A stretch of 64,000 nt of DNA from positions 576,001-640,000 of the forward strand of contig OZ244197.1 of assembly GCA_965216785.1 (NCBI GenBank). Direction: 5' to 3'. Source of the stretch: Thermodesulfobacteriota bacterium (GTDB lineage: Bacteria; Desulfobacterota_D; UBA1144; Nemesobacterales; UBA2774). A model generated the notes under the pieces. It ran no database searches. It was not told where the DNA came from and saw only the letters and a list, made by a program, of their open reading frames with translations. Positions 19,168-38,753 of this stretch are shown here, piece by piece. The position numbers were made by a program, and so were the translations under genes. How positions within the stretch are numbered: position 1 is the stretch's first letter; every line of letters starts with the position of its first letter.

Positions 19168-19809
19168 TTACGAAAGACCTATGGCTATGTGCACTACGTT
19201 TGCCAGAAAATGAAAGATGATACTGGCCCAGAGGGTGCCTGTGGCTAAGTATAGATAGCCCATAACCAAGGACGGGAAAAAAGTGAGAACGGCCTGAGAG
19301 CATACCGAAATATTATGACTTCCACCGATACAAAGAGTGATAAAATGCCCGATAGCAAAGAGAAGGCTCACGATAATAACTCCTTTCAAATTGTTCCCGA
19401 GCTTATTCTGAAGATAGCCCCTGAAAAAGACCTCTTCGGGCAGCGCTACCAAAAGGAGCTGTACGAGAATAAAGGTGTAGGAAAGCATGCGAAACGAAAG
19501 AGATCTATTTGTATAATAGCCTATGAGCGCCATGGCACCTGTGTATACGAGGAGCAGGATGACGGATACTATGAGCCCGATTACAATACCTCTTAAGTCC
19601 CACCTGAGTGTTGAAGAGCCACTTCCAGTGAAAATGGGTACGGAGAGCATTAAAAAGGCTGCTATTGAGGTAACATATGGCCAGGGGATAAAAAACTTCA
19701 TAGCGAGAATAGCTATGATGATTAGCACGTATATGGATAACGGGACAAGGTATCTGGACTCGCGTAAACTTGTTATCATAAGGAAATCTCGGAACACATT
19801 TTCAGGCAA
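19168..19809 (-). CDS. CPBP (Rce1/Abi) glutamic intramembrane protease, myxosortase/JDVT-sortase-like
   Basis: ALPEEVFFRGYLQ, LFAIGH, TFFPSLVMG, IFHFLAN; multiple TM helices; alternative start ATG 19779. Confidence 0.88.
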   Translation of the reverse strand: MPENVFRDFLMITSLRESRYLVPLSIYVLIIIAILAMKFFIPWPYVTSIAAFLMLSVPIFTGSGSSTLRWDLRGIVIGLIVSVILLLVYTGAMALIGYYTNRSLSFRMLSYTFILVQLLLVALPEEVFFRGYLQNKLGNNLKGVIIVSLLFAIGHFITLCIGGSHNISVCSQAVLTFFPSLVMGYLYLATGTLWASIIFHFLANVVHIAIGLS

Positions 19810-19839
19810 ACCTAAAAATACTTAAGATGCGTATATAGG

Positions 19840-21072
19840 TCAATAAAGCACATAGAATTCAAACTTATTTATGAACAAAACACCCCAGATATTTACTAAG
19901 ATGCTGAGAACAATTAATAATTTGTGATACCACTTGAGCTTTTCGGGAATCCCCTTAAATGTAAGCAATAGAAGAAACGGATAGAAATCGAGAGCATAGC
20001 GGTAACCGAACTGGGTCCATCCCGTACCGCTCTTTGTAAAAATAAGTAGAGCCGGGGGAATGATGGCGAGCCAGCAAGCGAGAGCGAGTTTGTTTCTGAT
20101 TCCCGCGGCGAAAGCAAAGATGAACGCAGGGGTTGTGATAAGTACACTGAGCCCCTCTTTTGACGGAACGATGTAGGGCCATTTTTCAATAAGAGCCGGC
20201 GGCTGCAGGAGGAATGTATATAGGTGATGATGCACATAGGAGAGGCTGAGCAGCCCCTGATCGAACCACGGGGATACCCTGGCTTTAGCTTCTGATATTG
20301 TGTGCATGGAATACGCTACGTCAAAGGGCGAGCCGAAGCGCAGATAGTTGTAGAGAAAGTTTAGACTGATAAATACCCCGACCCCAAGGGCCAAAAGTAA
20401 TAGAGGCTTTAATTTAATCCGCTTTAATATAGAGCTGCCGGAGGACAAGGGAAGCCATAGATCTGAGAGCATTACTATAAAAAACGGGAGTGTTAAGATA
20501 GTTAGAACCCTGGACCAGTATGAAGCCCCTAAAAGAAGACCGATTAGAAACACTCTACGCTTGCCGAATGTCTCAAAGATAGCGAGAAATAGAAAAAAGA
20601 GCGAGACTATATGGGCAAAATACCAGACTGAGCCGATTGTCGACGTGTACCAGTATATGGTGCCAAACGCAAAGAGCAGAGTCATCCACACCTGCTTTTC
20701 AAAACTCTCCGTAAGCCTTCTCATTAGCAAGAAGACAATTGAAACGTTGACGGCGCCAAGAACGATAGATGCGAATACCTGGCTGAAAGAAAGTCCCCAT
20801 ACGGCTACGAAAGGCACCAAAAGCAGTGCCGGCATAGGAGGATATATGGTATAGGAAAGCCCGTCTTTTATAATGAGCTCCTCAAAATAAAACGGGGTGT
20901 CCTGAAGATAAAGTCTGCCGTCAAGCAGAGCGTGCGCAAGGTATATGAAATAGTTAAAGGGGTTGGGCGGAGAAGGCTGCGTTACAAAGTATAAAACAAA
21001 TGAAATCAGGAAAAATAGTACGGCTGCGATGAGCGTGGAGTTTCTTTTATAGCCTGGATTCGATATATTCAT
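19840..21072 (-). CDS. polytopic membrane protein, probable GT-C-fold glycosyltransferase; paralog of 24210-25424
   Basis: About 10 TM segments; YPPMPALLL after the first loop; C-terminal GWTQFGYRYALDFYPFL. ATG 21072 follows GAAGGT. Confidence 0.6.
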   Translation of the reverse strand: MNISNPGYKRNSTLIAAVLFFLISFVLYFVTQPSPPNPFNYFIYLAHALLDGRLYLQDTPFYFEELIIKDGLSYTIYPPMPALLLVPFVAVWGLSFSQVFASIVLGAVNVSIVFLLMRRLTESFEKQVWMTLLFAFGTIYWYTSTIGSVWYFAHIVSLFFLFLAIFETFGKRRVFLIGLLLGASYWSRVLTILTLPFFIVMLSDLWLPLSSGSSILKRIKLKPLLLLALGVGVFISLNFLYNYLRFGSPFDVAYSMHTISEAKARVSPWFDQGLLSLSYVHHHLYTFLLQPPALIEKWPYIVPSKEGLSVLITTPAFIFAFAAGIRNKLALACWLAIIPPALLIFTKSGTGWTQFGYRYALDFYPFLLLLTFKGIPEKLKWYHKLLIVLSILVNIWGVLFINKFEFYVLY

Positions 21073-21165
21073 TGTAACCTTCTTATAAGTAACATTATAT
21101 TCAAGCATTTGTCGGACGGTCAAGAAACTATGGAGACGCGACTCGATCGATAGTATATATCAGCA

Positions 21166-22260
21166 ATGAACCGCAAAGACACACTTAAAGAATTACTGCC
21201 CGTAATAATCATAACGATACTAGGTACGTATTTTTTTTCTTACGTCTCGTACATTTTGATACAGAACGCGTATCCCGAGAGCCTGTTCGAAATATGGACA
21301 AGATGGGATACCGGGCATTATTTGAAGATCGCGGAAAAGGGATACTTGGCATCAGCTGATTATCAGATCGCTTTTTTTCCCCTCTATCCCTACCTAATTA
21401 AAGCCCTTACCCTGGTGTTTCAAAACTATATGTTGTCAGCATTAGTTATATCAAATCTGACTTACGCAGTGGCCGCATATTTTCTGTATGAGCTTGTAAA
21501 ACTTGACTATGATAAAAAAGACGCCTTAAGGACTGTAATATATTTATCCGTTTTCCCGACGGCGTACTTCCTGCACGCGGCTTATACCGAAAGCCTGTTT
21601 CTGGCGCTTTCTATCGGGAGTTTTTACTACGCAAGAAAAAAAAGCTGGGCTCTGGCCGGTATTCTGGGAATGTTTGCGGCGGCGACGCGCATTACCGGCA
21701 TCCTTCTCCTTCCGGTGCTCATCGTGGAGTACCTATCGCAGAAAGAATATAAATTAAGCGGGATAAAAACAGACTTTGTATGGATATGGATAATCGGGCT
21801 TGGCCTGATCTCTTACCTTACATTCAATTACATGGTTACGGGCGATCCTTTCTACTTCTTTGAAGTACAGCAGGCGAGCTGGTCAAGGAAGATCGCGCTT
21901 CCGTATGAGGGATTTCTGAACGCGCTTAGCGGAAGGCCTCCCGGCCGCGAGTCTACGGGGGCGCTGGCGGGGGACTGGGCCGAGATTATATTCGGCGTTT
22001 TGGGATTGGCAGGCGTAATATATAGTTTTTTCAAGCTTCGTATTTCATATAGCCTATATGTTCTGCTTACCTGGTTACTCGTAACCTCTAGCGTGATCTG
22101 GCTCAGTATACCGAGGTTTACGCTTACGATGTTTCCGCTAATAATTCTCCTTGCTCTATTTGGCAGGCGCAGGGGAGCAAATTTTATAATTTTATTTCTT
22201 TCACTTATCTGCTATGCGCTATATTTGTCACAATTTATAAGGTTCAAATGGGCTTTTTAG
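21166..22260 (+). CDS. PIG-V/Gpi18-like (GT76, Mannosyl_trans2) mannosyltransferase, copy 1
   Basis: RWDTGHYLKIAEKGY, AFFPLYP, AYTESLFLAL, ATRITG. Confidence 0.85.
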   Translation: MNRKDTLKELLPVIIITILGTYFFSYVSYILIQNAYPESLFEIWTRWDTGHYLKIAEKGYLASADYQIAFFPLYPYLIKALTLVFQNYMLSALVISNLTYAVAAYFLYELVKLDYDKKDALRTVIYLSVFPTAYFLHAAYTESLFLALSIGSFYYARKKSWALAGILGMFAAATRITGILLLPVLIVEYLSQKEYKLSGIKTDFVWIWIIGLGLISYLTFNYMVTGDPFYFFEVQQASWSRKIALPYEGFLNALSGRPPGRESTGALAGDWAEIIFGVLGLAGVIYSFFKLRISYSLYVLLTWLLVTSSVIWLSIPRFTLTMFPLIILLALFGRRRGANFIILFLSLICYALYLSQFIRFKWAF

Positions 22261-22262
22261 CT

Positions 22263-23390
22263 ATGTCTAGAAAAAAATTTGAAGATATATTAGAAATTCT
22301 TCCAATAATACTGACGGTAATAATCGGCACATTCGTTTTCGGCATTGTGTCTCACCTGGTGATAGAGAATAGATTTCCGGAGAGCTTGCTTGATTTATGG
22401 AATACCTGGGACGTTCAGCACTATATAAAAATAGCCAAGTTCGGATACCCAGCATTATTCGAAGACGGAAGGAACCTGCAGATCGTATTTTTCCCTCTTT
22501 ACCCCCTACTTATAAAGTTATTTTCATTTGTTTTTCAGAATTACATAGTTTCTGCCCTTATTGTATCAAACCTGTCTTATGCTGCAGCGGCATATTACCT
22601 GTATAAGCTCGTAAAAATAGATTTTAAAAAGGATGGCGCTTATAGGGCCGTTATCTATTTCTCTGTATTCCCTACTGCTTATTTTCTGCATGCCGCGTAT
22701 ACGGAGAGCCTGTTTCTGGCTCTTACAATTTCGAGCTTTTATTACGCCAGAAACGGCAGGTGGGCCATTTCCGGTACGCTCGGTATGCTGGCGGCGGCTA
22801 CAAGAATTACGGGGATACTGCTCATTCCGGTGCTAGTAGTAGAATATTTATCACAGAAAGGTTATAAGATAAGAAATATAAGACCGGATATAGTCTGGAT
22901 CGGTATCATAGGGTTTGGATTACTCGCGTATTTAATTCTGAACTATGTAGTTGCCGGAGATCCGTTCTACTTCTTGGAAATACAAAGAGAGCATTGGGCT
23001 AAGAAACTTGATTTCCCATTTAAAGGGTTTATAAGCGCCTGGAATATTATGACCGGAGACTTTGCGCTTAACGTTGACAGCCCCTCGACTAGACTGCTTG
23101 GCGGTCCGGTTGAGATTATATTCTCGTTATTGGGGCTATCGCTAACTATTTATAGTTTTTTCAGGATTAGACTTTCTTACAGTTTATACGCGTTGGCTAC
23201 ATGGATAATCATCACATCTACAGGGTTCTGGCTGAGTATTCCCCGATATACGCTTGCCATGTTCCCGATCTTCATAGCTATGGCTCTTTTGGGAAGGAAA
23301 AAGTACGTCAATTATCTCATAATATTCATATCGATATTGTTCTATGCGCTCTTTTTAATGAATTTTGTGAGGTTCAGGTGGGCGTTTTGA
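22263..23390 (+). CDS. PIG-V/Gpi18-like mannosyltransferase, copy 2
   Basis: TWDVQHYIKIAKFGY, VFFPLYP, AYTESLFLAL; ATG 22263 lies directly after the copy 1 stop. Confidence 0.85.
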   Translation: MSRKKFEDILEILPIILTVIIGTFVFGIVSHLVIENRFPESLLDLWNTWDVQHYIKIAKFGYPALFEDGRNLQIVFFPLYPLLIKLFSFVFQNYIVSALIVSNLSYAAAAYYLYKLVKIDFKKDGAYRAVIYFSVFPTAYFLHAAYTESLFLALTISSFYYARNGRWAISGTLGMLAAATRITGILLIPVLVVEYLSQKGYKIRNIRPDIVWIGIIGFGLLAYLILNYVVAGDPFYFLEIQREHWAKKLDFPFKGFISAWNIMTGDFALNVDSPSTRLLGGPVEIIFSLLGLSLTIYSFFRIRLSYSLYALATWIIITSTGFWLSIPRYTLAMFPIFIAMALLGRKKYVNYLIIFISILFYALFLMNFVRFRWAF

Positions 23391-23479: not shown

Positions 23480-24181
23480 ATGGAAATTTCAATCGTAATT
23501 CCAACTTATAACGAATCAGAAAACCTACCGATCCTCATTGAGAAAATTACGGCGGCTCTGGATAGTAGCAATATTGAGAGCAGGATTATAGTAGTTGATG
23601 ACGATTCGCCTGACGGGACCTGGAAAACGGCACTTGAGTTAAAGAATACATATGAAAACCTTGAAGTTCTCAGGCGTCAGGACAAGAGGGGTCTTTCTTC
23701 CGCGGTGCTGGACGGGTTTGCTATGTCAGATAGCCCTATCTTGGGAGTGATGGACGCGGACTTGAGCCATCCGCCCGAGAAGATACCTGAGCTAGTGGAG
23801 CCTATAATCAGGGGAGACGCCGATATTACTATAGGCAGCAGATACATAGATGAGGGCGGAATTGAGAAATGGCCTTTGACCCGGAGGATTTATTCTAAGG
23901 TTGCCACTCTGCTCGTACTCGGGTTGACGAATGTAAAAGACCCGATGTCAGGTTTCTTCTTCCTTCACAGAAACGTTATAGAGAACAAGCAATTAAACCC
24001 GCTCGGGTTTAAAATAGGGCTTGAAGTACTGGTGCGGGGCGAGCATGAAAACGTAATTGAAGTACCGATATTGTTTGGGGACAGAATGCATGGCGAGAGT
24101 AAGCTCGGCGGGGGCGTCGTGCTTGATTATCTGCTGCATCTTTCTAATCTTTACATCTATAAGTATTTTATGAGAAAATAG
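23480..24181 (+). CDS. polyprenol-phosphate mannose synthase (DPM1/Ppm1-like GT2)
   Basis: IPTYNE, VDDDSPDGT, RGLSSAV, MDADLSHPP, GSRY, DPMSGFF, RMHGESKL. Confidence 0.9.
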   Translation: MEISIVIPTYNESENLPILIEKITAALDSSNIESRIIVVDDDSPDGTWKTALELKNTYENLEVLRRQDKRGLSSAVLDGFAMSDSPILGVMDADLSHPPEKIPELVEPIIRGDADITIGSRYIDEGGIEKWPLTRRIYSKVATLLVLGLTNVKDPMSGFFFLHRNVIENKQLNPLGFKIGLEVLVRGEHENVIEVPILFGDRMHGESKLGGGVVLDYLLHLSNLYIYKYFMRK

Positions 24182-24209: not shown

Positions 24210-25424
24210 ATGAAGGAACTTTTCAAGACAGGATCAAATAACTCAACTTTATTTATAGCAATCGTATTAGCGGTCATATCGTTCGCTATATACTTTTTCA
24301 CAACTAACGGGGCACCCACACAATTTAATAACTTCGTTCTGCTGGCAGACGCTATATTGAACGGACAGCTGCACCTTGATAGAAATCTGAGCTGGATAGA
24401 GCTTGCTCATTATGATGGAATATACTTTATAGTTCCGCCCCCTATACCGACGATTTTGATATTGCCGGTAGTGGCTGTAACAGGTCTTGAAACAAATCAG
24501 ACTTTGCTTTCTTACGTCTTTGGAGCGATAAACGTATCACTGGCCTTTTTAACTGCCAGGTGTGTAAGTAGGAGCGTAAAAGTCCAGATCTGGACGGCAG
24601 TGATGTTCGGTTTCGGAACAATACACTGGTGGGTCGCCGCAAACGGCGGAGTCTGGATGTTTTCGCACACAATATCCGTCACATTTTTATTCATCGGAAT
24701 AATTCTGAGCTTTAAAAAGGCACACCCATTGCTGCCGGGCCTAAGCCTCGGCGCGGCATACTGGACCAGGCTCCCGACTGTACTTAGTTTCCCGTTTTTT
24801 ATGGCTATGTATGTGGATGAGTGGTATAAGAAGGACAGCACACAAAGCATAATAAGAAGGATCAATTTAAAGCCTCTTATTTATATGGGCTCGGGAGCAG
24901 GCATATTCGTAATACTGAACATGATTTATAATTACGTAAGGTTTGATACGCCTTTTGACGTGTCGTACTATCTTATTCCCGGAATCCTGGATGAATACTG
25001 GTATCAGAAAGGTATATTCGATATAAGCTACATACCGAGGCATCTGAAAATTATATTCGGCAGACTGCCAAATTTCTCAAGCGAATTCCCATATGTTACG
25101 GCATCTTGGAACGGGCTCGCAATCTGGATAACAACCCCCGCTTTTATATACGCATTCTTTGCGGGAATTAGAAACAGGATTGCTATTGGGTGCTGGCTTT
25201 CGATTGTGCTTATTGCATTTATAGATTTTTGTCATGGCACGTGGGGCTTTACACAGTTCGGTTACAGGTTCGCTATGGACTTCTATCCGTTCTTATTCCT
25301 CCTAACCGTCAAAGGGATTGGAGATAAGATCCGCTGGCACCATATAACTCTTATATTAATAGGGATACTGGTAAATCTTTGGGGGGTTCTCTGGATATAT
25401 AAATTCGGCTGGACCGGTTATTGA
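24210..25424 (+). CDS. polytopic membrane protein, probable GT-C-fold glycosyltransferase; paralog of 19840-21072
   Basis: VPPPIPTILI, YNYVRFDTPFDV, GFTQFGYRFAMDFYPFL. Confidence 0.6.
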   Translation: MKELFKTGSNNSTLFIAIVLAVISFAIYFFTTNGAPTQFNNFVLLADAILNGQLHLDRNLSWIELAHYDGIYFIVPPPIPTILILPVVAVTGLETNQTLLSYVFGAINVSLAFLTARCVSRSVKVQIWTAVMFGFGTIHWWVAANGGVWMFSHTISVTFLFIGIILSFKKAHPLLPGLSLGAAYWTRLPTVLSFPFFMAMYVDEWYKKDSTQSIIRRINLKPLIYMGSGAGIFVILNMIYNYVRFDTPFDVSYYLIPGILDEYWYQKGIFDISYIPRHLKIIFGRLPNFSSEFPYVTASWNGLAIWITTPAFIYAFFAGIRNRIAIGCWLSIVLIAFIDFCHGTWGFTQFGYRFAMDFYPFLFLLTVKGIGDKIRWHHITLILIGILVNLWGVLWIYKFGWTGY

Positions 25425-25442: not shown

Positions 25443-26060
25443 CTATTTCTTAAAAACGAGAAACTTATATCCCAAAAAATTCCAAATAACTACTATAAAT
25501 ACAGACGCAAGAGCCGAAATATTGGCCCATAGCACCGGAGACACGCCGCCAATGGGGCCGACGAAATTAACCAGGAATGAAGCCACAGCAACGTTAATAA
25601 AAAACCCGACGCCGGCAACTGTGAGAAACTTAAAAAACTGCTTCCCCATACCTTTAGTCTCAATACTCTCAAAGGTCCAGAACTTGTTCCACAAATAACT
25701 GTTAGTTACGGCTGAGAGAAAGGAGACAGCCTTAAAAATCGAAAATAGGTAACCTTTTTCGACACCGGACAAGAAGATAAGAAGGTTAAGTATCCCGAAG
25801 TCAATTGAAACATTGGACATGCCAATGGGAATGAATTTGCCGAATTGAAAGAGTGAGTGCCGATAGGAGCCGAGACGCGAAAAAATATATACCCATAAAG
25901 AGACCAAGGGGGGAATAACTATCAGAGCAAATGGCCAGTACTCAAGATACGAATGATAACCCTGGGGAATCTCGGCTTTTAGAGCATTCAGCATCGCCAC
26001 GGTAAAAACCGATATTATGAGTCCGATAATAAGCGAGGATATTAGATCTGTTCTTTTCAT
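25443..26060 (-). CDS. GtrA-family lipid-linked sugar flippase with two extra N-terminal helices
   Basis: [44 protein letters not shown]. Confidence 0.88.
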
Positions 26061-26148: not shown

Positions 26149-27462
26149 TTATCTCCAGGATTCAAGCCACATATATTGTTCGTGTTTATGATTTTCCATA
26201 TTTACTGCCGCAGTAATCGGATAGAAATAGATGAACACCGCCACAGCCGCAAGCAGGTACAGGACCACAAGTATTTTCCCGAACTTAGAATTCATGTTCC
26301 AAATGCGGTCGAGAAAATAGGCGCTTATTATGAGAATGAAGATAAAAGCGGGTATATAATGGTATAAAAAAGTTATCTTTCTCGGAGAAACCGCCCACGG
26401 AAGCCAAAGCGCAAGCACGCTTACGACGGCGAATATGAGAGGCGGATACTCTTTTCTTATGGCCTGAACCGCGCCCAGAACAAAGAACACACACCCCGTC
26501 CACCATATAAATGGGTTACCGAGCATATAAATATGCGCTCTGATACCTTCCCCTAAATCGTCAAAGTGAAGATATACGGGCTCGAGCATAAGAGGCCACT
26601 GCCACCACCTGGATTCATATGGGTGATGAGTTTCCACCCCGCCGTGAAAACCGTACATGGCATCCTGAAGACTAAGGAAGTCGACAAATGAATTACCAAA
26701 ATAGAAAAAAGGAATGTAAGTGGCAATGTAGACAAGTAAAGGCAGCACTCCGAACGCAATAGCCATTCTCGGAATTATATTTAGAACCGACTTTATATAG
26801 GAGCGGTCTTTTGAATCAGACAGACTGACTTCATAGTAATAGATTAGAAAAAAAGAGACCCCCGCAAGGAATATCCATATGTATACACCGCTCCATTTAA
26901 TGGACATCGAGGCCCCCGCAAACAACCCTGCCAGCATAAGAAACAAGATCTTTCTAGTTCTCGCGTACTTTACTACAAATAGAGACGCCAGGAGCAAAAA
27001 ATCGACCATAAAAATATCGACCATAGTAATCCGGCTGAGCACAAATATAAATGAATCGAGACTGTAGAGTACCGCAGCAATTAACCCTACTCCTTTACTT
27101 AGAAATAGGTTCTTCGCTAAAAGGTATATTAGAAGCGCGCCCAAGCCGCCGAAGAATGCCTGAAAAAACCGCCAGCCAAATGTATTATTGCCGAATATCT
27201 TGATGCCGATTGCGCTCAGCTCCTTACCCAGAGGAGGGTGTGACCATTCATATGCGAGATCCTCGGGAGCGTGACCGGTATTCTGCCAGGCGTGCTTGTT
27301 TCCCTTAGCCATCTCTTGGGCAGTGAAAGCATAATATACTTCGTCGAAATAGTAGCTTTGGGGTATTTCCAAACGGTATAATTTAGTGCCTAAGCTGAAA
27401 ATAAGCACTAAAAACAAGAGTATCTCGAATCTGAATTTATAGAGTAGCGAGTTTGAAGACAT
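26149..27462 (-). CDS. protein O-mannosyltransferase (PMT, GT39)
   Basis: YFDEVYY (DE motif), HPPLGK, FGWRF, KWSG, HPYESRWWQWP, FLYHYIPA. Confidence 0.9.
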   Translation of the reverse strand: MSSNSLLYKFRFEILLFLVLIFSLGTKLYRLEIPQSYYFDEVYYAFTAQEMAKGNKHAWQNTGHAPEDLAYEWSHPPLGKELSAIGIKIFGNNTFGWRFFQAFFGGLGALLIYLLAKNLFLSKGVGLIAAVLYSLDSFIFVLSRITMVDIFMVDFLLLASLFVVKYARTRKILFLMLAGLFAGASMSIKWSGVYIWIFLAGVSFFLIYYYEVSLSDSKDRSYIKSVLNIIPRMAIAFGVLPLLVYIATYIPFFYFGNSFVDFLSLQDAMYGFHGGVETHHPYESRWWQWPLMLEPVYLHFDDLGEGIRAHIYMLGNPFIWWTGCVFFVLGAVQAIRKEYPPLIFAVVSVLALWLPWAVSPRKITFLYHYIPAFIFILIISAYFLDRIWNMNSKFGKILVVLYLLAAVAVFIYFYPITAAVNMENHKHEQYMWLESWR

Positions 27463-28829: not shown

Positions 28830-29523
28830 CTCTAAGTTTCCAGGATTCTTTGAACATTCTTAGTATTACTTTAATATTAGCACCTGATTGCGTGCCGAAT
28901 TTCCGGGGAAAGTGGCGTATGGGAAATTCCTTTAGCTTATACCCGTGGTTTTTTAATTTGATCAGAAACTCGGCTGTAAAAAGCGCCCCACCTGAGATAA
29001 TGGGTCTAACACAGTGATAAGCCTTAGTGGGAATGACCTTAAAAGCGCAGTCCATATCCTTAACTTTTAGTCCGAACATAAAATATATGTACATCGCGTA
29101 AAGCCAAGCGTTAAGTGATCGCACGGGTGAGTCCGCTCTATCTTCTCTATAGCCGATAAGCACATCGTTTTCATTAACCGAGGGCAGCATACGATCAAGA
29201 TCGCTTATGTCGAATTGCCCGTCGCTGTCCATGAAGAAAATGTAATCGAGAGAAGCTTTTTCAAAACCACTCAGGAGCGCACCTCCATAGCCTCTATTTA
29301 CTTCGTGGTTAACCAATATGACAGATGGATTTGTGGATGCGAGCTGATCCACAATGGCCCCGGTATTATCGCTTGAGCCGTCGTTTACGACTATTACCTC
29401 GTAAGTACCGACATTATTCTCAAGATACGAAACACACTGGTTTACAGTGGTTTCAATATTTTCTTCTTCATTATGCGCAGGAAGAACTGCTGAAAGAGAT
29501 ATATCTGCTCTCATTTTATCCAT
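28816..29523 (-). CDS. GT2 polyprenol-phosphate glycosyltransferase (DPM/DPG synthase-like)
   Basis: LPAHNEE, VNDGSSD, NRGYGGAL, MDSDGQFD, DMDCAFK. Confidence 0.88.
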   Translation of the reverse strand: MDKMRADISLSAVLPAHNEEENIETTVNQCVSYLENNVGTYEVIVVNDGSSDNTGAIVDQLASTNPSVILVNHEVNRGYGGALLSGFEKASLDYIFFMDSDGQFDISDLDRMLPSVNENDVLIGYREDRADSPVRSLNAWLYAMYIYFMFGLKVKDMDCAFKVIPTKAYHCVRPIISGGALFTAEFLIKLKNHGYKLKEFPIRHFPRKFGTQSGANIKVILRMFKESWKLRDELR

Positions 29524-31127: not shown

Positions 31128-31133
31128 GGCGCA

Positions 31134-32780
31134 TTAACCTTTCTTGATAGATTCTAAAAGCAGCTCGGCGGAACGTAAACTCAAGGCCTCGATTGTCAAT
31201 GAGGGTGCTTCACCTCCGCCTGAGGTGGGGAATACACTCGCATCAGTTACTAAGAGATTTGGGATACCGTGATATCTGAGGCTCGAGTCCACTACCGAGT
31301 TTTTGGGGTCATTGCCCATTCTACATGTTCCAAAGACATGCGTTGCAGCAAATAAATCGTAGGAGGAGGATTGCTCCACTACTTTATCAGCACCCGCGGA
31401 CTTTAAAATCTCCATTGTCTTTTTTTGCATGAATTCAAGAGTTTTAAGCTCAGGATCACCCAGAAATGATTGTATGCTCGCTACGGGGAACCCGAATTCA
31501 TCTTTTTTTTCTGGATCTAGAGTAACAAATGAATTTTCGTTCGGTAAGAACTCCGATATGCCGCCCACGGCTATAGCATGACCGAACGACTCTTTCATGC
31601 CGTTAGTCAAATTTTCCCCCCAACCCCTTTTGTAATACCTAAGTGCATAGTTTAGCGGCCCGATGGCGCTTCCTACCGTTGGAAACATTCTCAATCCGCC
31701 TGGAAAACCGCGCTTGGGATCAGGATCGTTCCAATCCCATATAATACCGTCAATAGGTATTCCTCTATATGAATCCGTCCGTTCTGGATGGAAAGCAACG
31801 GCTTCATAAAAATTAGTCTCCATGAAGTTCTTGCCAACATTGCCGTTCCCGTTAAGCTCTGAATTTAAGAGGAGCTTGGGGGTTTCGACTGCTCCGCACG
31901 CTACCGCTACGTAGTCAGCCTCTACAAAATGCTCTTTCTTATCCCGGTCAAAATAAGTTACACCTTTAGCCTTGCCGCTTTTTTTATCCACTTCGATTTT
32001 CTCTGCAAAAGCGAAGGGTAGAATCTCGCAGTTCCCGGTATCCTCAGCCAGGGGTACGAATGTTACATCAACGCTTCCTTTATCCTTTCGTGGGCATCCC
32101 CAGACGCACCCGTTACAGTAATTACAAGGGGGGGCATCTCTATAGACCTCAGATAATATGGCTACGGTGTTGGGCTCTATGTTTATGCCAAGCTTATTGC
32201 ACCCTTTGTTTACAACCTGGCTCGCGTAACTGAGGTCATGGGGTTTAAGCGGATATGGTTTGGTCCTTGGCCGAGAGGGGACTTTGTCCGGTCCGGCTAC
32301 ACCTATGATATTCTCAACACTCGTGTAATATGGCTCTAAATCCTTATATTCAATAGGCCAGTCTACCGCAACGTCGAAAAGGGTCTTCATCCGGAAAGCC
32401 TTTTCATTTAGCCGGTGCGCCTCTCCCTGGTAATGGAGCGTAGTGCCTCCGACACCCGGGACCTGCTGGTACATGAGGTACTTTCTATGATCTGTCTTGT
32501 TGAAAGTGCCAGAGCCCATATTCCAGGACTTGAGACTTTCGTATTGGGAATCTAAATTCTGCGCCTTTCCGTATGTGACTTTTATCTTTTTCTTGTAAGG
32601 GAAGCCCTTTGTTTCCCAATCCTGATCGGCAAGCGCGTAATCTTTTAAGGGATTATAGCGGGCTCCGGCTTCAAGCACTAGAACCTTCATGCCAGAAGAC
32701 GCAAGCTTCCATGCAAACGGAGCTCCACCGGGGCCAGAACCTATCACTACACAGTCATATTTTTTATCTTTAGAAGGCAT
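31134..32780 (-). CDS. GMC-family flavoprotein oxidoreductase (sugar/gluconate 2-dehydrogenase large-subunit-like)
   Basis: GSGPGG, VGGTTLHY, CNYCNGCVWGC Fe-S motif, HVFGTCRMG, DASVFPT; no signal peptide. Confidence 0.9.
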   Translation of the reverse strand: MPSKDKKYDCVVIGSGPGGAPFAWKLASSGMKVLVLEAGARYNPLKDYALADQDWETKGFPYKKKIKVTYGKAQNLDSQYESLKSWNMGSGTFNKTDHRKYLMYQQVPGVGGTTLHYQGEAHRLNEKAFRMKTLFDVAVDWPIEYKDLEPYYTSVENIIGVAGPDKVPSRPRTKPYPLKPHDLSYASQVVNKGCNKLGINIEPNTVAILSEVYRDAPPCNYCNGCVWGCPRKDKGSVDVTFVPLAEDTGNCEILPFAFAEKIEVDKKSGKAKGVTYFDRDKKEHFVEADYVAVACGAVETPKLLLNSELNGNGNVGKNFMETNFYEAVAFHPERTDSYRGIPIDGIIWDWNDPDPKRGFPGGLRMFPTVGSAIGPLNYALRYYKRGWGENLTNGMKESFGHAIAVGGISEFLPNENSFVTLDPEKKDEFGFPVASIQSFLGDPELKTLEFMQKKTMEILKSAGADKVVEQSSSYDLFAATHVFGTCRMGNDPKNSVVDSSLRYHGIPNLLVTDASVFPTSGGGEAPSLTIEALSLRSAELLLESIKKG

Positions 32781-32879
32781 ACTTGTGAGCGGTTGATAAT
32801 ATAAATAACCTATTGCTTTATGTCAATTTATAAGTTATACATTTGCCTTTATTCCATTAGTAGAAGAGAGGATTTAAAT

Positions 32880-33713
32880 ATGAAAAGGTTATTGGTACTG
32901 CTCATTCTGCCGGTTGTGATAGTAGCCGCTTGCGGAGCTCCGGATAAGAGTGAGGATAAAGCTGAGAATAAGACGGTAAACGAATCGGGCAATAAATCTC
33001 CGGAACAGGCGCAAAGCGCGTTGAAAATAGACCCTAAACCGCAAAGAGACAGTAAAGTGGTAGCGAGGGTGAACGGGGTACCCATCTATGAGGACGAGCT
33101 CAAAGGCAGGCCACTGCAGTATTTGATCACTGAGGAAGTGCTTTATCAAAAAGGACTCGGGCTCGGGCTTGGTGAGAAATATGCCGAAAAGATTAGGGAT
33201 TACAATAAACAGCTGATTGTTCACGATTTAAAAATGGATATTCTTGAGAATTTACCTCCTACAAAAGAGATATCCGATGAGGAAGTGAAGGCCTATTACG
33301 ATAATAACCCTGAAAGGTATACATTCGTACGAATGCATGAAGTAGGCTTTGTGGATAAGAATCTGGGCGATGAAATACTGGCTAAGGTCAAGAACGGTGA
33401 AGACTTAACCGAGATCGTAAACGCTTACGTAGAATCCGGGGCTAACGTAGTGGGCAGAGATCTGGGATTCAACAGAGAGATGGTAAAAGAATTCGATAAC
33501 ATTGAGCTTGGAGCCGTAACTGATGTACTTACAAAACCCGACGGCTCGTACAGCGTAATTAAAATTGTGGAGATAAAACCAATCCCACTCCGACAAACGG
33601 AACGCGCTATCAGGCAACTGCTCGAGGCAAAAAGAAAATCTTACGCAAATGACAATTATGCAAATCAAATTATTGAAGAAAACGGTATAGAAGTTGAGAT
33701 TATAGACAATTAG
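32880..33713 (+). CDS. lipoprotein with PrsA/parvulin-like foldase domain
   Basis: Lipobox IVAAC after MKR and a hydrophobic stretch; VVARVNGVPI, EEVKAYYDNNPERY, GRDLGF; ATG 32880 follows GAGG. Confidence 0.75.
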   Translation: MKRLLVLLILPVVIVAACGAPDKSEDKAENKTVNESGNKSPEQAQSALKIDPKPQRDSKVVARVNGVPIYEDELKGRPLQYLITEEVLYQKGLGLGLGEKYAEKIRDYNKQLIVHDLKMDILENLPPTKEISDEEVKAYYDNNPERYTFVRMHEVGFVDKNLGDEILAKVKNGEDLTEIVNAYVESGANVVGRDLGFNREMVKEFDNIELGAVTDVLTKPDGSYSVIKIVEIKPIPLRQTERAIRQLLEAKRKSYANDNYANQIIEENGIEVEIIDN

Positions 33714-33752
33714 AAGAAGCTTTAGTAAAGTGCGGGAGCATTCAGAATAATA

Positions 33753-34280
33753 ATGGCAAATTCAAGAAGAGCTTTTATAAAAACACTGACTGTCGGGGTA
33801 TTGGGCTCTGAAGCTATAGCCGTATTGCCAAAAAAGGCTTTTGCTAAAAACGAGACCAAATCATCGGGCATCGAAATTCAAAAAGGATATAAGGTATTTG
33901 ATCCCAATACACAAAAAACGATGGAAGCGCTTACTGAAGCTCTGATACCCGGTTCAGAGGAATTTGGAATTAATGAAAAAATCTTTAGCTATGTTCAAAG
34001 AGACAGGGCCGCCGCCACTTTTTTTGACGCGGGGCTTTGGAATATAGATGCCGTATCTAGACAAAAATATGACAAGCCTTTTTATGAGTTGACGAATAAA
34101 GAGGAGACAATAGAAATAATAAATCATGTTAAAAAAAATAATAGAAGGTTTTTCGTGCAATTCAGATACCTTACAATGAGACTATTCTTTGCTGACCCCA
34201 AGGTATGGGAAAGCCTTTCTTACAACGGCCCTCCTCAGACAAAAGGCTTTTTGAATTATTCAGAGCCCCCCGAAAGCTAA
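33753..34280 (+). CDS. Tat-exported gluconate 2-dehydrogenase subunit 3-family protein
   Basis: SRRAFIK twin-arginine signal; ALTEALIPG, FFADPKVWESLSYNGP. Confidence 0.78.
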   Translation: MANSRRAFIKTLTVGVLGSEAIAVLPKKAFAKNETKSSGIEIQKGYKVFDPNTQKTMEALTEALIPGSEEFGINEKIFSYVQRDRAAATFFDAGLWNIDAVSRQKYDKPFYELTNKEETIEIINHVKKNNRRFFVQFRYLTMRLFFADPKVWESLSYNGPPQTKGFLNYSEPPES

Positions 34281-34294: not shown

Positions 34295-35419
34295 TTAAGG
34301 TTTGTAAACAGATATAAGACCTAGCGTCTTATCCACAAGGTTATCTATATCGATCCGATCCTCAAGCTCTTTTATGTGTCTATGGTTGGCCCTGGTTCTG
34401 GGATTTGAAGATACAATTGAGCAGCAGTCCTTATAGGATACAATGGAACCCTCGTAAGTTCCTATTTTCTTGGCAAGATCTACAATCTCCTGTTTATCAT
34501 AAGATATTAGCGGTTGAAATATCGGTAAAGAAACCGCTGAGCTAACCTCTGCTATGTTATCCATTGTCTGTGAGGCGACCTGACCCAGACTGTCACCAGT
34601 CACAAGGGCTTTACAGCCGTTCTTAATGGCTAAGCGCTCGGCTACCTTAACCATGAACCTCCTGAACAAAACAAGCTCGTGTCCTTTTGTGTTTATTTCC
34701 TTGAGCATTTCGGTCTCAAAAAGATAGTAAGGGGCCAGATATAAAACATATTCGTTTTGAAACTTGCCTAAGCAGCTTAATATCTGGACCATCTTGGTAT
34801 TTTTTACATGTTCGTTCTCTGAGAAAACGTGAAAATGAAGATAATGCACAACGCAGCCCCTTTTCATCATAAGGTACGAGGCTACCGGGGAGTCGATACC
34901 CCCGGATAGAAGCGATAGTACTTTACCGCTCACACCGACAGGGAGGCCTTTTAAGCCCTGTTTTTTCTTAAAATAGACATATACCTCATCAGCGATCTCT
35001 ATAAATACACTGAGCCCCGGATTTTTTAGATCAACCTTCATACCGTACTCAGTAAGCACTTCATTACCTATTATTTTCGCCGTTTCCACTGAGTCGTATG
35101 GAAAACCTTTATCCGAGCGTTTCACATATATACCAAAGCTAGGCTTAGATTGGTTTCTCTTACCAACCTCTTCTAAAGCGGCCTTCTTAATAGAATCCAG
35201 ATTCTTGTCCACTATAAGAGCCTCTGCAAACCAAGAAATTCCAAATATATTTTGGAGGTTATCGGGGTTTCCGCCGTCAAGCACAAACCGTCCTCTAAAG
35301 CGCTTTATGCGACCTCCCGTTGCGGTCTCTATATTGTCTTTTAATCTGATTTCGAATAAATCTCTATTCCTGCCTTTAAGTGACAGCTCACCATAGTGAA
35401 TAAGAGTTACTTTTTTCAT
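34295..35419 (-). CDS. thiI: tRNA 4-thiouridine synthase (THUMP plus PP-loop, no rhodanese domain)
   Basis: HYGELSLKGRNR, LLSGGIDSPVA, GDSLGQVASQT, DCC. Confidence 0.95.
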   Translation of the reverse strand: MKKVTLIHYGELSLKGRNRDLFEIRLKDNIETATGGRIKRFRGRFVLDGGNPDNLQNIFGISWFAEALIVDKNLDSIKKAALEEVGKRNQSKPSFGIYVKRSDKGFPYDSVETAKIIGNEVLTEYGMKVDLKNPGLSVFIEIADEVYVYFKKKQGLKGLPVGVSGKVLSLLSGGIDSPVASYLMMKRGCVVHYLHFHVFSENEHVKNTKMVQILSCLGKFQNEYVLYLAPYYLFETEMLKEINTKGHELVLFRRFMVKVAERLAIKNGCKALVTGDSLGQVASQTMDNIAEVSSAVSLPIFQPLISYDKQEIVDLAKKIGTYEGSIVSYKDCCSIVSSNPRTRANHRHIKELEDRIDIDNLVDKTLGLISVYKP

Positions 35420-35483: not shown

Positions 35484-35521
35484 AAAAAAACCCGGAAGAG
35501 CTAATTTCTAACTCTCCCGGG
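35484..35521 (-). terminator. rho-independent terminator (second of two) after the CTERM surface-protein gene
   Basis: Minus strand CCCGGGAGAGTTAGAAATTAGCTCTTCCGGG hairpin followed by T7. Confidence 0.8.
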
Positions 35522-35548
35522 GTTAATTGTTATCTTAATGTAAAACCG

Positions 35549-35589
35549 AAGAAAGAATAAGAGACGGCAGGACCGAAGATCCCGCCGTC
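35549..35589 (-). terminator. rho-independent terminator (first of two) after the CTERM surface-protein gene
   Basis: Minus strand GACGGCGGGATC-TTC-GGTCCTGCCGTC (12 bp stem) followed by TCTTATTCTTTC. Confidence 0.7.
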
Positions 35590-35604
35590 AAGGGTTAGTC
35601 TAAG

Positions 35605-37560
35605 TTATTTCTTTCTTCTTCTCATAGCTCTGATACCGAATACGAACGCTACAGGTACCAGCGGAATCAGTACGTTGGCGAATGCCGTGCCAAGCTGTAC
35701 AGGGTTTCCGGCGATTGCGCAGCTACCACTTCCGCCACCACGGTTAGGCGTGGTCGTCGGAGGAGCCGTCGTCGGTCCGAGTGTCGGAGCCGTCGTCGGA
35801 GGAGCCGTCGTCGGAGGTCCTACGAAGTTGTCGCTAAGAATAAGCGCTTCGTCGATTCCGAGTCTTGCGAAACAAACTGGAAGCTCGCCGCAACTCGTGA
35901 ACTTCTCTACGTCGTTCCAGATACCGACTACCGCGTTGATGAAAGCTGCCTGCGGTGTATATGAAGGCAGATATTCATCATAGAAGTTGATGTGAACTGC
36001 ATCAGCTCCAGCAGTACCTGTCTGGGCATCGAACTGTCCTGCGAATACGTTCGGAACGATTACGTCTAGGAACGCATTCTCGGATCCGTCAAGGATACCG
36101 TCACACTCGAGTGTTTCAATAATAGTGTCGAGTACTGTGAAGTTATCTACAAAAGCTCCAGTGTTGTCGCCACCATCTGTACAACCCGCCTCAGAAGTCT
36201 GTCCGGTGATGTACTGAACAGCATAAGTACCAGGTCCGTCTATGGAAAGTGACTCGCCAGTGAAGAACGCAGAGCGGCCAGCTATAAAGTCGAAGTTACT
36301 ACCAGCACCTGATACGTTGTACTGCTGTGCATCAGTACCCAAACCTGTACATGTATTACCATTAGCAGGGTCATCGCCGAGCGCTGCCGCGTTATAACAC
36401 CTGCAGTCCTCGAAGTTAGCAACACCAGTGGTGTCATCAATTATACAGACCATCGCATAGTTAGCACAGGTCGTAAAACTATCCGGAAGCAGGAACGATA
36501 GGTCATAGGTAAGAGTTTTACTCTCATCAGTCGTGAAAATGTTACTGGTTACAACAGTCACGTTCGTCTCAAAAGCAGCACCCGAATCAATAAGGTTCGG
36601 TCGTGCGAGCTCAGTAAACGGCCCACCCTGGTATGGTAGAGACGGATTGAAAGTTGATGAGACTGCAAAACCCATGAACAAGTTAGAGTTGGGGTTATCA
36701 GCGTCAGGGCCAGAAGCAGCAGGTATCGGTACAGTTCCCACAGCTATATTAGCCTCGGTGATTCCACTCGATTGACCCTGGCCAACTGACCATGGTCCGA
36801 TGGTCGGTCCATTCTGGAAACTTCCATTCTGGACAAGGTTAACTGTTGTCGTTGTTGTTATATCAAAGCAAACACCCTCTCTGTGATAGGTAGCAAAACC
36901 ATACATGTAATCTGATTCTGCAACACTTTTAATGAAAGTGTTACCAGCTAGATAGTCATGCTCTTGCGCTTGACCAGGAGTCGGGCAGTTGTCAACAGCC
37001 GTTACAGTTACAAAACCCTCTTTACCCTGAAGGTTAGCATCGGCTTCGTCAACACCTATGTTTGAAATGATATCTCCAAAGTTATATACGTGAGTATCGA
37101 ACTCAGTGTAGAAATCACAGAAGTTTCTGATTTCAACACAGTTTTCGTCAAATATATGCACGTGAACCCAGGTACCAGTTTCGTTTATAGCGTTGGTTAC
37201 CTGAAGGTACGTGTTTCTGCCATCTTTCTGTGTCCACCAAGAAACAATCTGTGAACCAGTTTCGTTAGTCGGTGTAGGACTGAAGAAAGAGGTAAAATCT
37301 ACATGCTGCCAGTCCATACCACCGTGTAGCGGCCCTCCGATAAGGCTATCGACGGTACCGATGAGCGCACCCGAGAAGTCCGGGAACGGCAAAGCCGGAG
37401 CAGCCTCTACATTTACTTCTAGCCAACCTGTAGTGTCTGGTACAGCCGGGCAGAACAGGCCGTCAGTGCCAACTTGGGCCTGAGCCTGGTTCTGAAAACC
37501 AAACCCTAGCAAGACAAGCATTATTACAGCTACCAAAGAAAATCTTAACTTGCTTATCAT
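35605..37560 (-). CDS. acidic secreted surface protein (S-layer candidate) with Pro/Thr linker and Cys-containing C-terminal sorting signal
   Basis: Signal peptide ending AQA; D/E/T/G/N-rich; ends PPTTAPPTTAPTLGPTTAPPTTTPNRGGGSGSC, hydrophobic helix, RAMRRRKK; strong RBS AAGGAGG. Confidence 0.85.
   Translation of the reverse strand: MISKLRFSLVAVIMLVLLGFGFQNQAQAQVGTDGLFCPAVPDTTGWLEVNVEAAPALPFPDFSGALIGTVDSLIGGPLHGGMDWQHVDFTSFFSPTPTNETGSQIVSWWTQKDGRNTYLQVTNAINETGTWVHVHIFDENCVEIRNFCDFYTEFDTHVYNFGDIISNIGVDEADANLQGKEGFVTVTAVDNCPTPGQAQEHDYLAGNTFIKSVAESDYMYGFATYHREGVCFDITTTTTVNLVQNGSFQNGPTIGPWSVGQGQSSGITEANIAVGTVPIPAASGPDADNPNSNLFMGFAVSSTFNPSLPYQGGPFTELARPNLIDSGAAFETNVTVVTSNIFTTDESKTLTYDLSFLLPDSFTTCANYAMVCIIDDTTGVANFEDCRCYNAAALGDDPANGNTCTGLGTDAQQYNVSGAGSNFDFIAGRSAFFTGESLSIDGPGTYAVQYITGQTSEAGCTDGGDNTGAFVDNFTVLDTIIETLECDGILDGSENAFLDVIVPNVFAGQFDAQTGTAGADAVHINFYDEYLPSYTPQAAFINAVVGIWNDVEKFTSCGELPVCFARLGIDEALILSDNFVGPPTTAPPTTAPTLGPTTAPPTTTPNRGGGSGSCAIAGNPVQLGTAFANVLIPLVPVAFVFGIRAMRRRKK
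35744..35822 (-). repeat. imperfect 15-nt tandem repeat (CCTCCGACGACGGCT) encoding PPTTA units
   Basis: Forward strand gtcgtcggaggagcc units with one PTLG interruption. Confidence 0.85.
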
Positions 37561-37631
37561 TTATTTATCCTCCTTTTTGAATTTTGTTACGCAATTGTAA
37601 GTCATTGTTGTTTACCTTTGTCATTTTTATT

Positions 37632-38753
37632 TTAAAGATCCTCTGTCGGCTCTAACGTAGGAGGAAAATCTTCCTCGTCATCCGAAGCAAGCCAAGAATC
37701 CATGGATCCCGTACCGTTTCCGTTGTTAAGGCCTAAGAAACCAACGAAAAATAGATCTTCATCTGGGGAATCCTCAAAGAAGACCGGCAGGTACAACCAA
37801 CCAGCGTCATTGGATTCGCTGAGCGTGCTGTCGTTGCATATACGGTTACCCAAGTCAGCCTGCTTACTGTTAGGAATAGAGTTATCTATACCTCTGTTGA
37901 AGTTGCCAATCGAGCAGTCAAAGAATGTCGGGCTGCAAGACGTACCGTCTTCAAATTCATCGAATATATGAACCTGCGGGTTGCTAACTTCAAACGGGTC
38001 ACCAGAATTGGAGCCGAATGTAATTCCAAAGAATGGTGATGCGGTAACAGTATCGAAGTCAACCTCTTCATAGACTATACCAACAACATCTGAGAGGTTA
38101 TTGCCGTCTACGTTATTGAAGTTCAATATGAAATCTGTCGTTTCATCCCCAAAGAAGTCTTCTCCCGCTGCATTAGTTCTGTATTCATAACCAGAAGCGT
38201 CTAATATGCGGAATAAGCCAATCATCGCGAAGTCGTCACCCGAGATAAGCGAAATCGAAACGAAACCGTAACTGTTGGACAGATCCGGGTCCGGAGCCGA
38301 TTCACACTCGGAATTTGGTAATCCGTCGGCTGTACAGTTGCTTACCAAGTTCTCAATATCGTAAACGTGTGTATCGCCCTTAGTGTAAACATCGTCCCAG
38401 TTTACCTCTTCGCATGCACCAAAAGGCTGGTCAACAGTAGTTGCACCAACATTAAAAATCTGTACGTGAACAACTATTGTGCTCGTCGATGTATTGGTCA
38501 GCTGAAATAGGGTGTCCCTATCTCTTGTATCCCAATAGTAGATGAGTCTGTTCACTCCAGTATCTGTCTGGTCAACCAGCGGCAATACGTTACCGCCGGG
38601 GCCGCCAGCGATTGACTGCGTCGGTAGAACCAGCATTGGTAAAACCAAAAGAAAAGCAAGTACTAACAAGTACTTTATTTTGGACATAATATCCTGTAGC
38701 ATTGAACCTTTCCTCCTTGTTATAGTATTGTTGATTATGTTTCCTTTGTTCAT
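37632..38753 (-). CDS. acidic secreted protein, paralog of 35605-37560 without the anchor
   Basis: Signal peptide; shared motifs (QLTN, VHVQIF, DTHVYD, GFV, TSC, GID). Two in-frame AAGGAGG-preceded starts at 38753 and 38702. Confidence 0.85.
   Translation of the reverse strand: MNKGNIINNTITRRKGSMLQDIMSKIKYLLVLAFLLVLPMLVLPTQSIAGGPGGNVLPLVDQTDTGVNRLIYYWDTRDRDTLFQLTNTSTSTIVVHVQIFNVGATTVDQPFGACEEVNWDDVYTKGDTHVYDIENLVSNCTADGLPNSECESAPDPDLSNSYGFVSISLISGDDFAMIGLFRILDASGYEYRTNAAGEDFFGDETTDFILNFNNVDGNNLSDVVGIVYEEVDFDTVTASPFFGITFGSNSGDPFEVSNPQVHIFDEFEDGTSCSPTFFDCSIGNFNRGIDNSIPNSKQADLGNRICNDSTLSESNDAGWLYLPVFFEDSPDEDLFFVGFLGLNNGNGTGSMDSWLASDDEEDFPPTLEPTEDL

Follow-up and report, generated by a model that had tools for sequence, protein, structure and literature searches.

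The window analyzed here is a stretch of 64,000 nucleotides (G000:C1:576001-640000) from a 3.12-Mb single-contig genome, G000 (assembly GCA_965216785.1, 92% complete), whose host is Ca. Dadabacteria judging by the names of close homologs. It encodes a CPBP-family intramembrane protease, a series of glycosyltransferases (GTs), and a pair of paralogous proteins of 651 and 381 aa, the larger of which ends in a Cys-containing tail. Our preferred reading, which we hold with moderate confidence, is that a Cys-tail protease and a polyprenyl-phosphate-sugar (polyprenyl-P-sugar) O-glycan cassette converge on a predicted heterodimeric protein resembling a surface layer (S-layer), as argued from gene content, distributions, fusions and motifs. 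The locus is two separable machines, not one pathway, and each part resembles a known system in its working but misses strict family membership. Gene order begins with nadE, the CPBP gene, GTa, two PIG-V-like genes, GT2a, GTb, GtrA, PMT, an ALG6-like gene and GT2b, after which five genes (FG-GAP/ASPIC, GMC oxidoreductase, PPIase, gluconate-2-DH subunit 3 and thiI) precede the genes for the tailed 651-aa and untailed 381-aa proteins, such that 16 kb separate the CPBP gene from the tailed one. The original prediction, each of whose named genes was found in its place, had instead joined the protease and the transferases in a single pathway.

The protease carries all three motifs of its family, EExxxR, FxxxH and HxxxN (EEVFFR at 125, F..H155 at 151, H200..N204), and may be the myxosortase-like enzyme that serves every Cys-tail protein of G000; of the three CPBP genes in that genome it is the nearest to the myxosortase core. 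It scored below every Mrt cut-off (Mrt_core 72.9/100, MrtP 76.8/250, MrtC 59.7/195), including those of the further subtype models (MrtS 55.8/130, MrtX 42.5/180, MrtJ 37.6/75). A second CPBP paralog, considered as the sorting enzyme and rejected, scored best against MrtA (87.9/200) yet is present in just 16/120 genomes. At its C-terminus the 651-aa protein has a Thr/Pro linker followed by the motif GGGSGSC (with Cys614), a transmembrane (TM) helix and RRRKK. Ten G000 proteins, dispersed round the chromosome and carrying unrelated domains, share this design of Gly-rich motif, one Cys, TM helix with a conserved Pro, and basic end. No NCBIfam CTERM model matched the window tail, TIGR03901, NF033191 and TIGR04564 included; among 15 aligned tails, two matched TIGR03901 (MYXO-CTERM), two NF033191 and one TIGR04564 at E <=0.1, and one G000 tail passes TIGR03901 outright (20.3 against a cut-off of 20).

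Distributions were counted across the class in 120 genomes, related ones among them not being independent. The protease occurs in 85 and the tail profile in 94, with both in 82, protease alone in 3, tail alone in 12 and neither in 23; because 82 of the 85 protease-positive genomes have tails, the protease tracks the Cys tail. The 12 tail-only genomes include 7 fragmented drafts and 4 single weak matches, no Mrt_core match was found in four genomes lacking both protease and tail, and the tails read in five PMT-free genomes were genuine C-terminal GGGC-TM motifs. GspD clears its cut-off in G000, as it does in 10 of the 12 genomes examined for it. These distributions fit the housekeeping behavior of myxosortase described in the main text of the Haft preprint (bioRxiv 2023.06.07.544157), a text from which the word "Dadabacteria" is absent. 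Shared with the myxosortase/MYXO-CTERM system, as set out there, are the Gly-rich motif, invariant Cys, TM helix and basic end of the tail, the single-copy CPBP protease, the many scattered clients and the presence of a type II secretion system (T2SS). The differences are that the window tail, which matches no CTERM model, contains a single Cys and a Pro in mid-helix but lacks a DP motif, and that the protease is shorter, sub-threshold for all Mrt models and from another lineage. By analogy, the Cys-tail sorting system here is very probably myxosortase-like. G000 also encodes 54 IPTL-CTERM-pattern proteins, of which the one checked passes TIGR04174; these belong to another system, such that two C-terminal sorting systems coexist in this genome. 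Elsewhere in the class, the 2-Mb genome G019 has 43 Cys-tail matches, on long proteins, the tails of G090 come after collagen-like repeats, and one G061 protein (L110) has both an internal and a terminal tail.

Comparing the protease with the transferases revealed a different relationship. PMT was found in 42/120 genomes, GTa/b in 36/120 and PF04188, the PIG-V-like family, in 31/120 (a lower bound). Because 44 of the 85 protease-positive genomes are without PMT (41 have it), the protease is separable from the transferases. Genus g26 has the protease in 35/36 genomes and PMT, PIG-V-like and GTa/b in 0/36. G090 (99% complete, one contig) reads nadE-CPBP-GtrA-thiI and keeps 5 tails, with no match to PMT, PIG-V-like, GTa/b, ALG6-like, TMTC or DPMS-like GT2 proteins, one of these null searches (five genomes) having had no positive control among them; it retains one other PMT_2-family protein. 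In G019, too, the protease and tails are kept, and no PIG-V-like, GTa/b or PMT protein was matched. In a synteny sample of 40 chosen loci, weighted to the two nearest families and with some ended by contig edges, nadE lies next to the protease in 36, 26 have a GT-C gene within the stretch examined, and the interval from CPBP to GtrA is variable in content and orientation while GtrA-PMT-ALG6-GT2b is stable. The proposed coupling of the protease to a mannosylation line thus fails on the 44/85 genomes without PMT and on G090; of the two associations that profiling and synteny had been expected to reveal, that of protease with CTERM tails was borne out, and that of protease with transferases was not, GT-C genes being near in 26/40 loci without being tied to it. 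At three g26 loci (L123, L126, L127) a DPMS-GtrA fusion directly adjoins at least one TMTC-like gene, and by sequence this is a different predicted lipid-linked glycosylation module in genomes without the PMT cassette.

Following the transferases outside their home locus, we found that they travel as a unit. A single open reading frame (ORF) encodes the ALG6-like and PMT proteins in G001 (889 aa) and in G031 (876 aa); the fusion is partial in G032, whose GT2b-ALG6-PMT-GtrA unit has relocated as a whole, away from the protease. Scanning the ALG6-like alignment over 185,579 genomes gave 50 loci, of which 23 were examined and 27 left out for looking like Dadabacteria loci already seen. The ALG6-PMT fusion recurs in 14 non-Dadabacteria loci (13 assemblies) of Microgenomates type, 6 of them named Woesebacteria, Microgenomates or Patescibacteria and 8 placed in this group solely by the gene order they share. 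GTa/b adjoins the fusion in 12/14 and a PIG-V-like gene does so in 2/14, the flanks include LCP, FemAB and MurJ, and the PMT FDE and ALG6-like DYxPGY/HERH motifs are conserved. Thr/Pro-rich proteins adjoin 14/14 fusion loci, with LPxxG and a TM helix in 13/14, and 0/5 non-fusion loci; the LPxxG call is our own pattern, and three such proteins matched no NCBIfam model. All 5 fusion genomes tested have a sortase, and none of the 5 has a match to the window protease. Since the cassette sits by LPxxG stalks with a sortase and without the protease, the glycan, as predicted from these sequences, follows the Thr/Pro stalk rather than the anchor, and we consider it likely that the cassette acts on that stalk. 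PMC12331936 describes for the mycobacterial PMT a preference for Pro-rich Ser/Thr sites, with extension by another GT-C.

The stalk itself is distinctive. Among the ten tailed proteins of G000 only the 651-aa protein has one (S+T 0.31 and P 0.26, against at most 0.23 and 0.14 in the other nine), and stalks in its homologs average S+T 0.36 and P 0.31 (71 of 75 aligned homologs being scorable). Across the 120 genomes, the stalk-protein family (34/120) and PMT occur together in 29, PMT only in 13, the family only in 5 and neither in 73. GT2b-ALG6 single ORFs (G013, L162) were not counted, the G013 contig being frameshifted. A GTa/b tree (26 chosen rows, unrooted) grouped the Dadabacteria copies with 96/97 support, with the long-branch L134 apart, and gave no direction of transfer. 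The row of genes conserved in the Microgenomates-type loci L176-L193 (FemAB, a PcrA-like helicase, LCP, GTa/b, the ALG6-PMT fusion, tandem Thr/Pro LPxxG proteins, a PilO-like gene and MurJ) is a candidate glycosylated, wall-anchored surface array.

The paired proteins, which are paralogs (E 6e-9), matched no Pfam or NCBIfam family and no S-layer family. The 651-aa model is all-beta (pLDDT 86), with a core that in part resembles Thermotoga TM1070 (Z 10.1, rmsd 2.1, 106 aligned) and only weak Foldseek matches (query TM-score <=0.15); its insert resembling a carbohydrate-binding module (CBM) is missing from shorter homologs, as seen in the gap of the G008 match. The 381-aa family comprises 391 representatives at 50% identity. 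The predicted 651/381 complex scored 0.88 compared with 0.09 for the best control, with partner pLDDT at least 79 and at least 79% of contacts shared between runs; the mark used for such scores, is reached by 116/157 solved and 2/215 mismatched pairs, counts that apply only roughly to the alignments used. The models thus support binding of the two proteins as a heterodimer. The order untailed then tailed is conserved, and G079, G016 and G017 each have several copies of the pair. Codon use ranks the window pair 5 and 6 of 1621 genes against a reference including EF-Tu and GroEL, and 19 and 51 of 1621 (z 6.8 and 4.3) against ribosomal proteins; a second G000 pair has ordinary codon use (ranks about 1200-1360). 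Complex score and codon use lend support to the S-layer-glycoprotein idea in the original prediction, and by analogy we lean slightly towards the pair being S-layer-like.

Several observations concern relatives of this pair. The second G000 pair (L079:6908-9645; G000:C1:1054907-1057644) has a larger member without the Cys tail that ends in hexapeptide-like repeats. G079 (G079:C1, L082, L140) has four tandem pairs at the locus and at least 11 tailed copies in the genome, diverged except for a near-identical stalk and tail, and interleaved with untailed paralogs, an arrangement resembling a variable surface-cassette system. P0325, entertained as a natural fusion of the subunits, was set aside as a likely read-through product because both a tail and a signal peptide lie in its interior; P0435, with two cores and a tail, gives weak support to such a fusion.

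Turning to the individual transferases, the window encodes a GT2 polyprenyl-P-sugar synthase, GtrA and GT-C enzymes together, the combination that defines three-component periplasmic glycosylation. GT2a is, from its sequence, a likely polyprenyl-P-mannose synthase, and GT2b is a generic polyprenyl-P-sugar synthase, not DPMS-like; both predicted synthases are therefore present, and the DPM1-like label holds for GT2a. GT2b orthologs (E 1e-48 to 1e-87) occur in 5/5 PMT-bearing genomes tested, whereas GT2a is missing beside PMT in G008, G009 and G021, and in the five genomes of the Microgenomates-type set it has distant matches only (best about 1e-21), with none in G021. Because GT2b accompanies PMT and the DPMS-like GT2a does not, the donor for the core cassette is likely made by GT2b, and because the GT2 that accompanies PMT is the non-DPMS one, the sugar may not be mannose, such that the earlier word "mannosylation" goes further than the evidence. 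The PMT DE motif aligns with yeast Pmt1 (6p25, E 7.5e-8), and the actinobacterial Pmt equivalog model NF058602 gives 115 bits against a cut-off of 800. Homologs of the ALG6-like protein match GT87 in 14/22 cases and ALG6/8 in 1/22 at E 0.034, and the protein itself falls below the PF03155 cut-off and has no meaningful PDB sequence match, so that the ALG6/GT87 label is weak. We take its DYxPGY and HERH motifs to be ALG6-like. PDB sequence searches with the ALG6-like and PIG-V-like proteins returned no matches; the two PIG-V-like proteins score 39 and 42.3 bits with PF04188, and such tandem copies occur only in G000 and G099 among the 40 synteny loci. The two "unknown paralogs" of the original prediction, which already counted them as GT-C-type, are placed among the GT-Cs, GTb by an AlphaFold2 (AF2) model (pLDDT 93) with Foldseek TM-scores of 0.4-0.56 to PglB, ArnT, ALG12, PimE, Pmt4 and GPI-MT1, and GTa by its paralogy with GTb; the structural comparison gave GTb a GT-C fold and showed no preference for glycosylphosphatidylinositol (GPI) mannosyltransferases. 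Some GTb homologs are fused to GT2 (e.g., L167).

Taken together, the order of events might be as follows. The Sec pathway would export both subunits, with the C-terminal helix holding the 651-aa subunit, which is predicted to bind its 381-aa partner. GT2b would load a sugar on polyprenyl phosphate and GtrA would move it across the membrane, where the PMT-like enzyme would transfer it to Thr/Ser of the stalk and the ALG6-like enzyme extend it, giving a short O-glycan. More speculatively, GTa/b and the PIG-V-like proteins, supplied by GT2a, could add strain-variable sugars. Finally, by analogy with MrtX, a separate enzyme would lipidate Cys614, the CPBP protease would cut behind it and the T2SS would export the complex to the surface; such a sequence of lipidation by a separate enzyme, cleavage and T2SS export is the model of Guo et al. 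(PMC11980579).

A number of observations weigh against this scheme. The co-occurrence of PMT and stalk may reflect block loss, because the unrelated GMC oxidoreductase has the same profile; G012 (99% complete) has a Thr/Pro-stalk homolog without a PMT ortholog; PMT is present in G031 and G032, where nothing matched the subunit pair; and in G017 Cys-rich repeats take the place of the stalk and the PMT-like gene is just 24%. The cross-lineage case amounts to two lineages, not 14 events, the Phycisphaerae locus L184 has an ALG6-like gene beside PMT with no stalk protein in the flank examined, and the LCP gene by the Microgenomates cassette could be the glycan-attaching enzyme there. Genus g26 is not glycosylation-free, having DPMS-GtrA fusions and TMTC-like genes, one of them two genes from the protease (G057). 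The subunits being paralogs, the complex score may reflect a homodimer-like fit; codon bias is suggestive only, the ribosomal reference putting EF-Tu at 639 and GroEL at 1453; no S-layer family matches, an Atlas link to Slr4 (0.79, 22% of members) being a lead only; and the protease scores are, as above, under all myxosortase cut-offs.

Among competing explanations, the one we rank highest, at roughly one chance in five, is that the GT-Cs, chiefly GTa/b and the PIG-V-like proteins, modify a non-protein glycoconjugate such as a phosphatidylinositol (PI)-mannoside-like lipid, lipopolysaccharide (LPS) or another envelope polymer, acting as stacked three-component systems, with PMT alone, if any, working on protein. 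Inositol-1-phosphate synthase (Ino1) is above cut-off in 10/10 Dadabacteria tested, and G000 has Ino1 (G000:C1:1404477-1405826), a PIP-synthase-like gene (419590-420339; NF040950 147.7 bits vs 180, NF045883 122.5 vs 170) and an IPCT/DIPPS-like pair (1371254-1373372), which suggests from sequence that the lineage may have inositol lipids. In the same direction, GTb is as close to ArnT, PimE and ALG12 as to PMT, the variable slot shifts in number and orientation like a serotype locus, and GT2-GtrA-GT-C systems for envelope glycans are already known. Ino1, however, is independent of the cassette (G090, G019, G057, G026) and was not found in 2/2 Microgenomates-type genomes carrying it, and GTa/b adjoins the ALG6-PMT fusion in 12/14 loci, all 14 of which adjoin stalk proteins. 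It is less likely still, and in our judgment rather improbable, that gene order is merely inherited, the transferases acting on many periplasmic proteins and the 651/381 pair being a lectin-like adhesin, not an S-layer, without any particular link to the cassette. The housekeeping genes nadE, gltB, thiI, truA, leuB and mfd are equally syntenic, GMC shares the PMT profile, the 651-aa insert is CBM-like, and some members of the stalk-protein family are untailed or have other C-termini; set against these are the cassette's position by differently anchored stalk proteins in a distant lineage, the uniqueness of the stalk among ten tailed proteins, and ribosomal-like codon use in the window pair and not in the second pair.

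The headline of the original prediction was a single GPI-like pathway, in which an inositol lipid mannosylated by the GT-Cs would receive the protein once CPBP has cut it, and we now regard this as very improbable. PF04188 passes twice, a DPMS-like synthase and inositol-lipid genes are present, protease and transferases are neighbors in 26/40 loci, and the myxosortase papers cited here name no Cys-modifying enzyme. Bacterial homologs of the PIG-A and PIG-L steps and of the ethanolamine-phosphate bridge are too widespread to inform. Yet protease and tails remain in G090, G019 and genus g26, which lack the cassette, the cassette occurs without the protease beside LPxxG tails, GTb shows no leaning to GPI enzymes, and the GPI8-type transamidase (peptidase C13) was absent from all 12 genomes searched, G000 (92% complete) included, in a search whose control matched in 1/14. 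CPBP enzymes are moreover described as hydrolases that act after Cys lipidation, and MrtX cleaves in E. coli without such GTs. Equally remote is the proposal that PI made by Dadabacteria, and mannosylated in the periplasm by the DPMS-like, PIG-V-like and GTa/b proteins, serves as a glycolipid anchor for the Cys-tailed, O-glycosylated S-layer subunit, which would be a convergent GPI-like add-on to a myxosortase-type system in some lineages only. The conservative alternative offered alongside that headline, independent O-glycosylation plus Cys-tail processing, is the one that these data support.

Protease-tail and cassette-stalk convergence on one surface protein, our preferred reading, also invites comparison with better-known systems. 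Like the Haloferax S-layer glycoprotein of the archaeosortase ArtA system, as described in PMC6098224, the 651-aa protein carries, ahead of a tripartite tail, a stretch rich in Thr and probably O-glycosylated; in Haloferax the tail gives way to lipid anchoring. Unlike that glycoprotein, the window has another protease family and motif, a diderm setting, two subunits and identifiable candidate O-glycosylation enzymes. The Sulfolobales SlaA/SlaB layer, in the same source, also combines one anchored and one unanchored subunit, whereas here the subunits are paralogous, the larger is anchored, the tail is likely cleaved and any lattice would be hypothetical. Actinobacterial O-mannosylation (Ppm1, Pmt, PimE) shares the polyprenyl-P-sugar synthase, a DE-motif PMT, Pro-rich Ser/Thr sites and a second GT-C extender, and differs in the NF058602 score (115/800), in that our extender is ALG6-like and often PMT-fused, and in an accompanying GT2 that is not DPMS-like. 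Eukaryotic GPI synthesis (DPM1, PIG-M/V/B, GPI8) shares PF04188, a DPMS-like synthase, inositol-lipid genes and a cleavable hydrophobic C-terminal signal, and is set apart by the GPI8-type peptidase not found in 12 genomes, the Cys motif and basic end, and the separability of protease and GTs. For the Microgenomates-type version, a parallel is Actinomyces oris GspA/LcpA, a glycosylated wall-anchored protein system that it resembles in grouping an LCP gene with genes for glycosylation and for stalk proteins of sortase type; LcpA, however, is a phosphotransferase, not a GT-C, and the Dadabacteria block has no LCP gene.

If this reading is true, it puts a name to the chief surface coat of a lineage that is widespread and uncultured, namely a glycosylated two-subunit layer on a myxosortase-type Cys anchor. 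A portable O-glycan cassette, with ALG6-like and PMT enzymes often in one polypeptide and an uncatalogued GT-C family, would track Thr/Pro stalks across two unrelated anchoring systems, those of Dadabacteria and Microgenomates. PMC4973528 describes ALG6-type lumenal GTs as apparently confined to eukaryotes, so that an ALG6-like extender joined to PMT in bacteria offers a testable clue to how GT-Cs evolved; the protease, being small, would together with its tail make a compact model for the Cys-lipidation step. Our literature searches, with most subscription journals outside their coverage, returned no paper on the locus, the fused cassette or the protein pair.

Table. Features of the window (positions counted from its first nucleotide).
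Feature	Coordinates	Strand	Remarks
CPBP/Rce1-like intramembrane protease	19168..19809	-	PF02517, 70.3 bits (cut-off 22.4)
GTa, GT-C-fold protein without Pfam family	19840..21123	-	Variable slot; paralog of GTb, E 2e-111
PIG-V-like copy 1	21166..22260	+	PF04188; variable slot
PIG-V-like copy 2	22248..23390	+	PF04188; variable slot
GT2a, DPMS-like GT2	23480..24181	+	5MLZ, E 3e-64; variable slot
GTb, GT-C fold	24210..25424	+	Variable slot; AF2 and Foldseek
GtrA-family flippase-like protein	25443..26060	-	PF04138; core cassette
PMT (GT39)-like protein O-glycosyltransferase	26149..27462	-	PF02366 and PF16192; core cassette
ALG6/GT87-like GT-C	27465..28829	-	Core cassette
GT2b, polyprenyl-P-sugar synthase	28816..29523	-	Core cassette; ArnC 1e-14, DPMS 1.5e-10
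Conserved intervening block (FG-GAP/ASPIC, GMC oxidoreductase, PPIase, gluconate-2-DH subunit 3)	29550..34280	.	
thiI	34295..35419	-	Housekeeping, within block; TIGR00342 341 bits (cut-off 264)
Two terminator-like hairpins 3' of tailed gene	35491..35589	-	Consensus scan only
651-aa tailed subunit	35605..37560	-	Signal peptide, beta core, CBM-like insert, Thr/Pro stalk, Cys tail
Cys-containing C-terminal sorting tail	35608..35739	-	Residues 608-651; Cys614; conserved mid-helix Pro
Thr/Pro stalk, predicted O-glycan acceptor	35746..35814	-	About residues 583-605
CBM-like jelly-roll insert	36121..36849	-	Residues 238-480; VIA Z 12.8, rmsd 2.7, 133 aligned, 8xmz_B
Untailed paralog, predicted partner	37632..38777	-	381 aa as longest ORF; directly upstream of tailed gene

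Some finer features of the region deserve mention. The true start of the 381-aa ORF is probably Met26 judging from its sequence; near the ORF start (38700-38777), a conserved RRKGSM stretch and an AGGAGG site fall together. Promoter-like sites were no more frequent than by chance, with 8 seen and 8.9 expected. Beyond the pair, the window continues with an S41 protease of the MXAN_5808 family (827 bits, cut-off 661), oppB, truA, an FAA hydrolase, a TMTC-like gene, leuB and mfd, the TMTC-like label coming from TPR matches in this analysis and motifs that we take to be those of TMTC. The S41 protease and the TMTC-like gene were considered as pathway members and dropped, both being kept in G019 after block loss and no link having been found. 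The GMC oxidoreductase of the intervening block occurs in 40/120 genomes. In G021, G032, G016 and G017, whose GTs have relocated or been lost, that block (29550-34280) is still found next to the protease or to the subunit pairs; it might supply the surface layer with a sugar dehydrogenase and a foldase acting in the periplasm.

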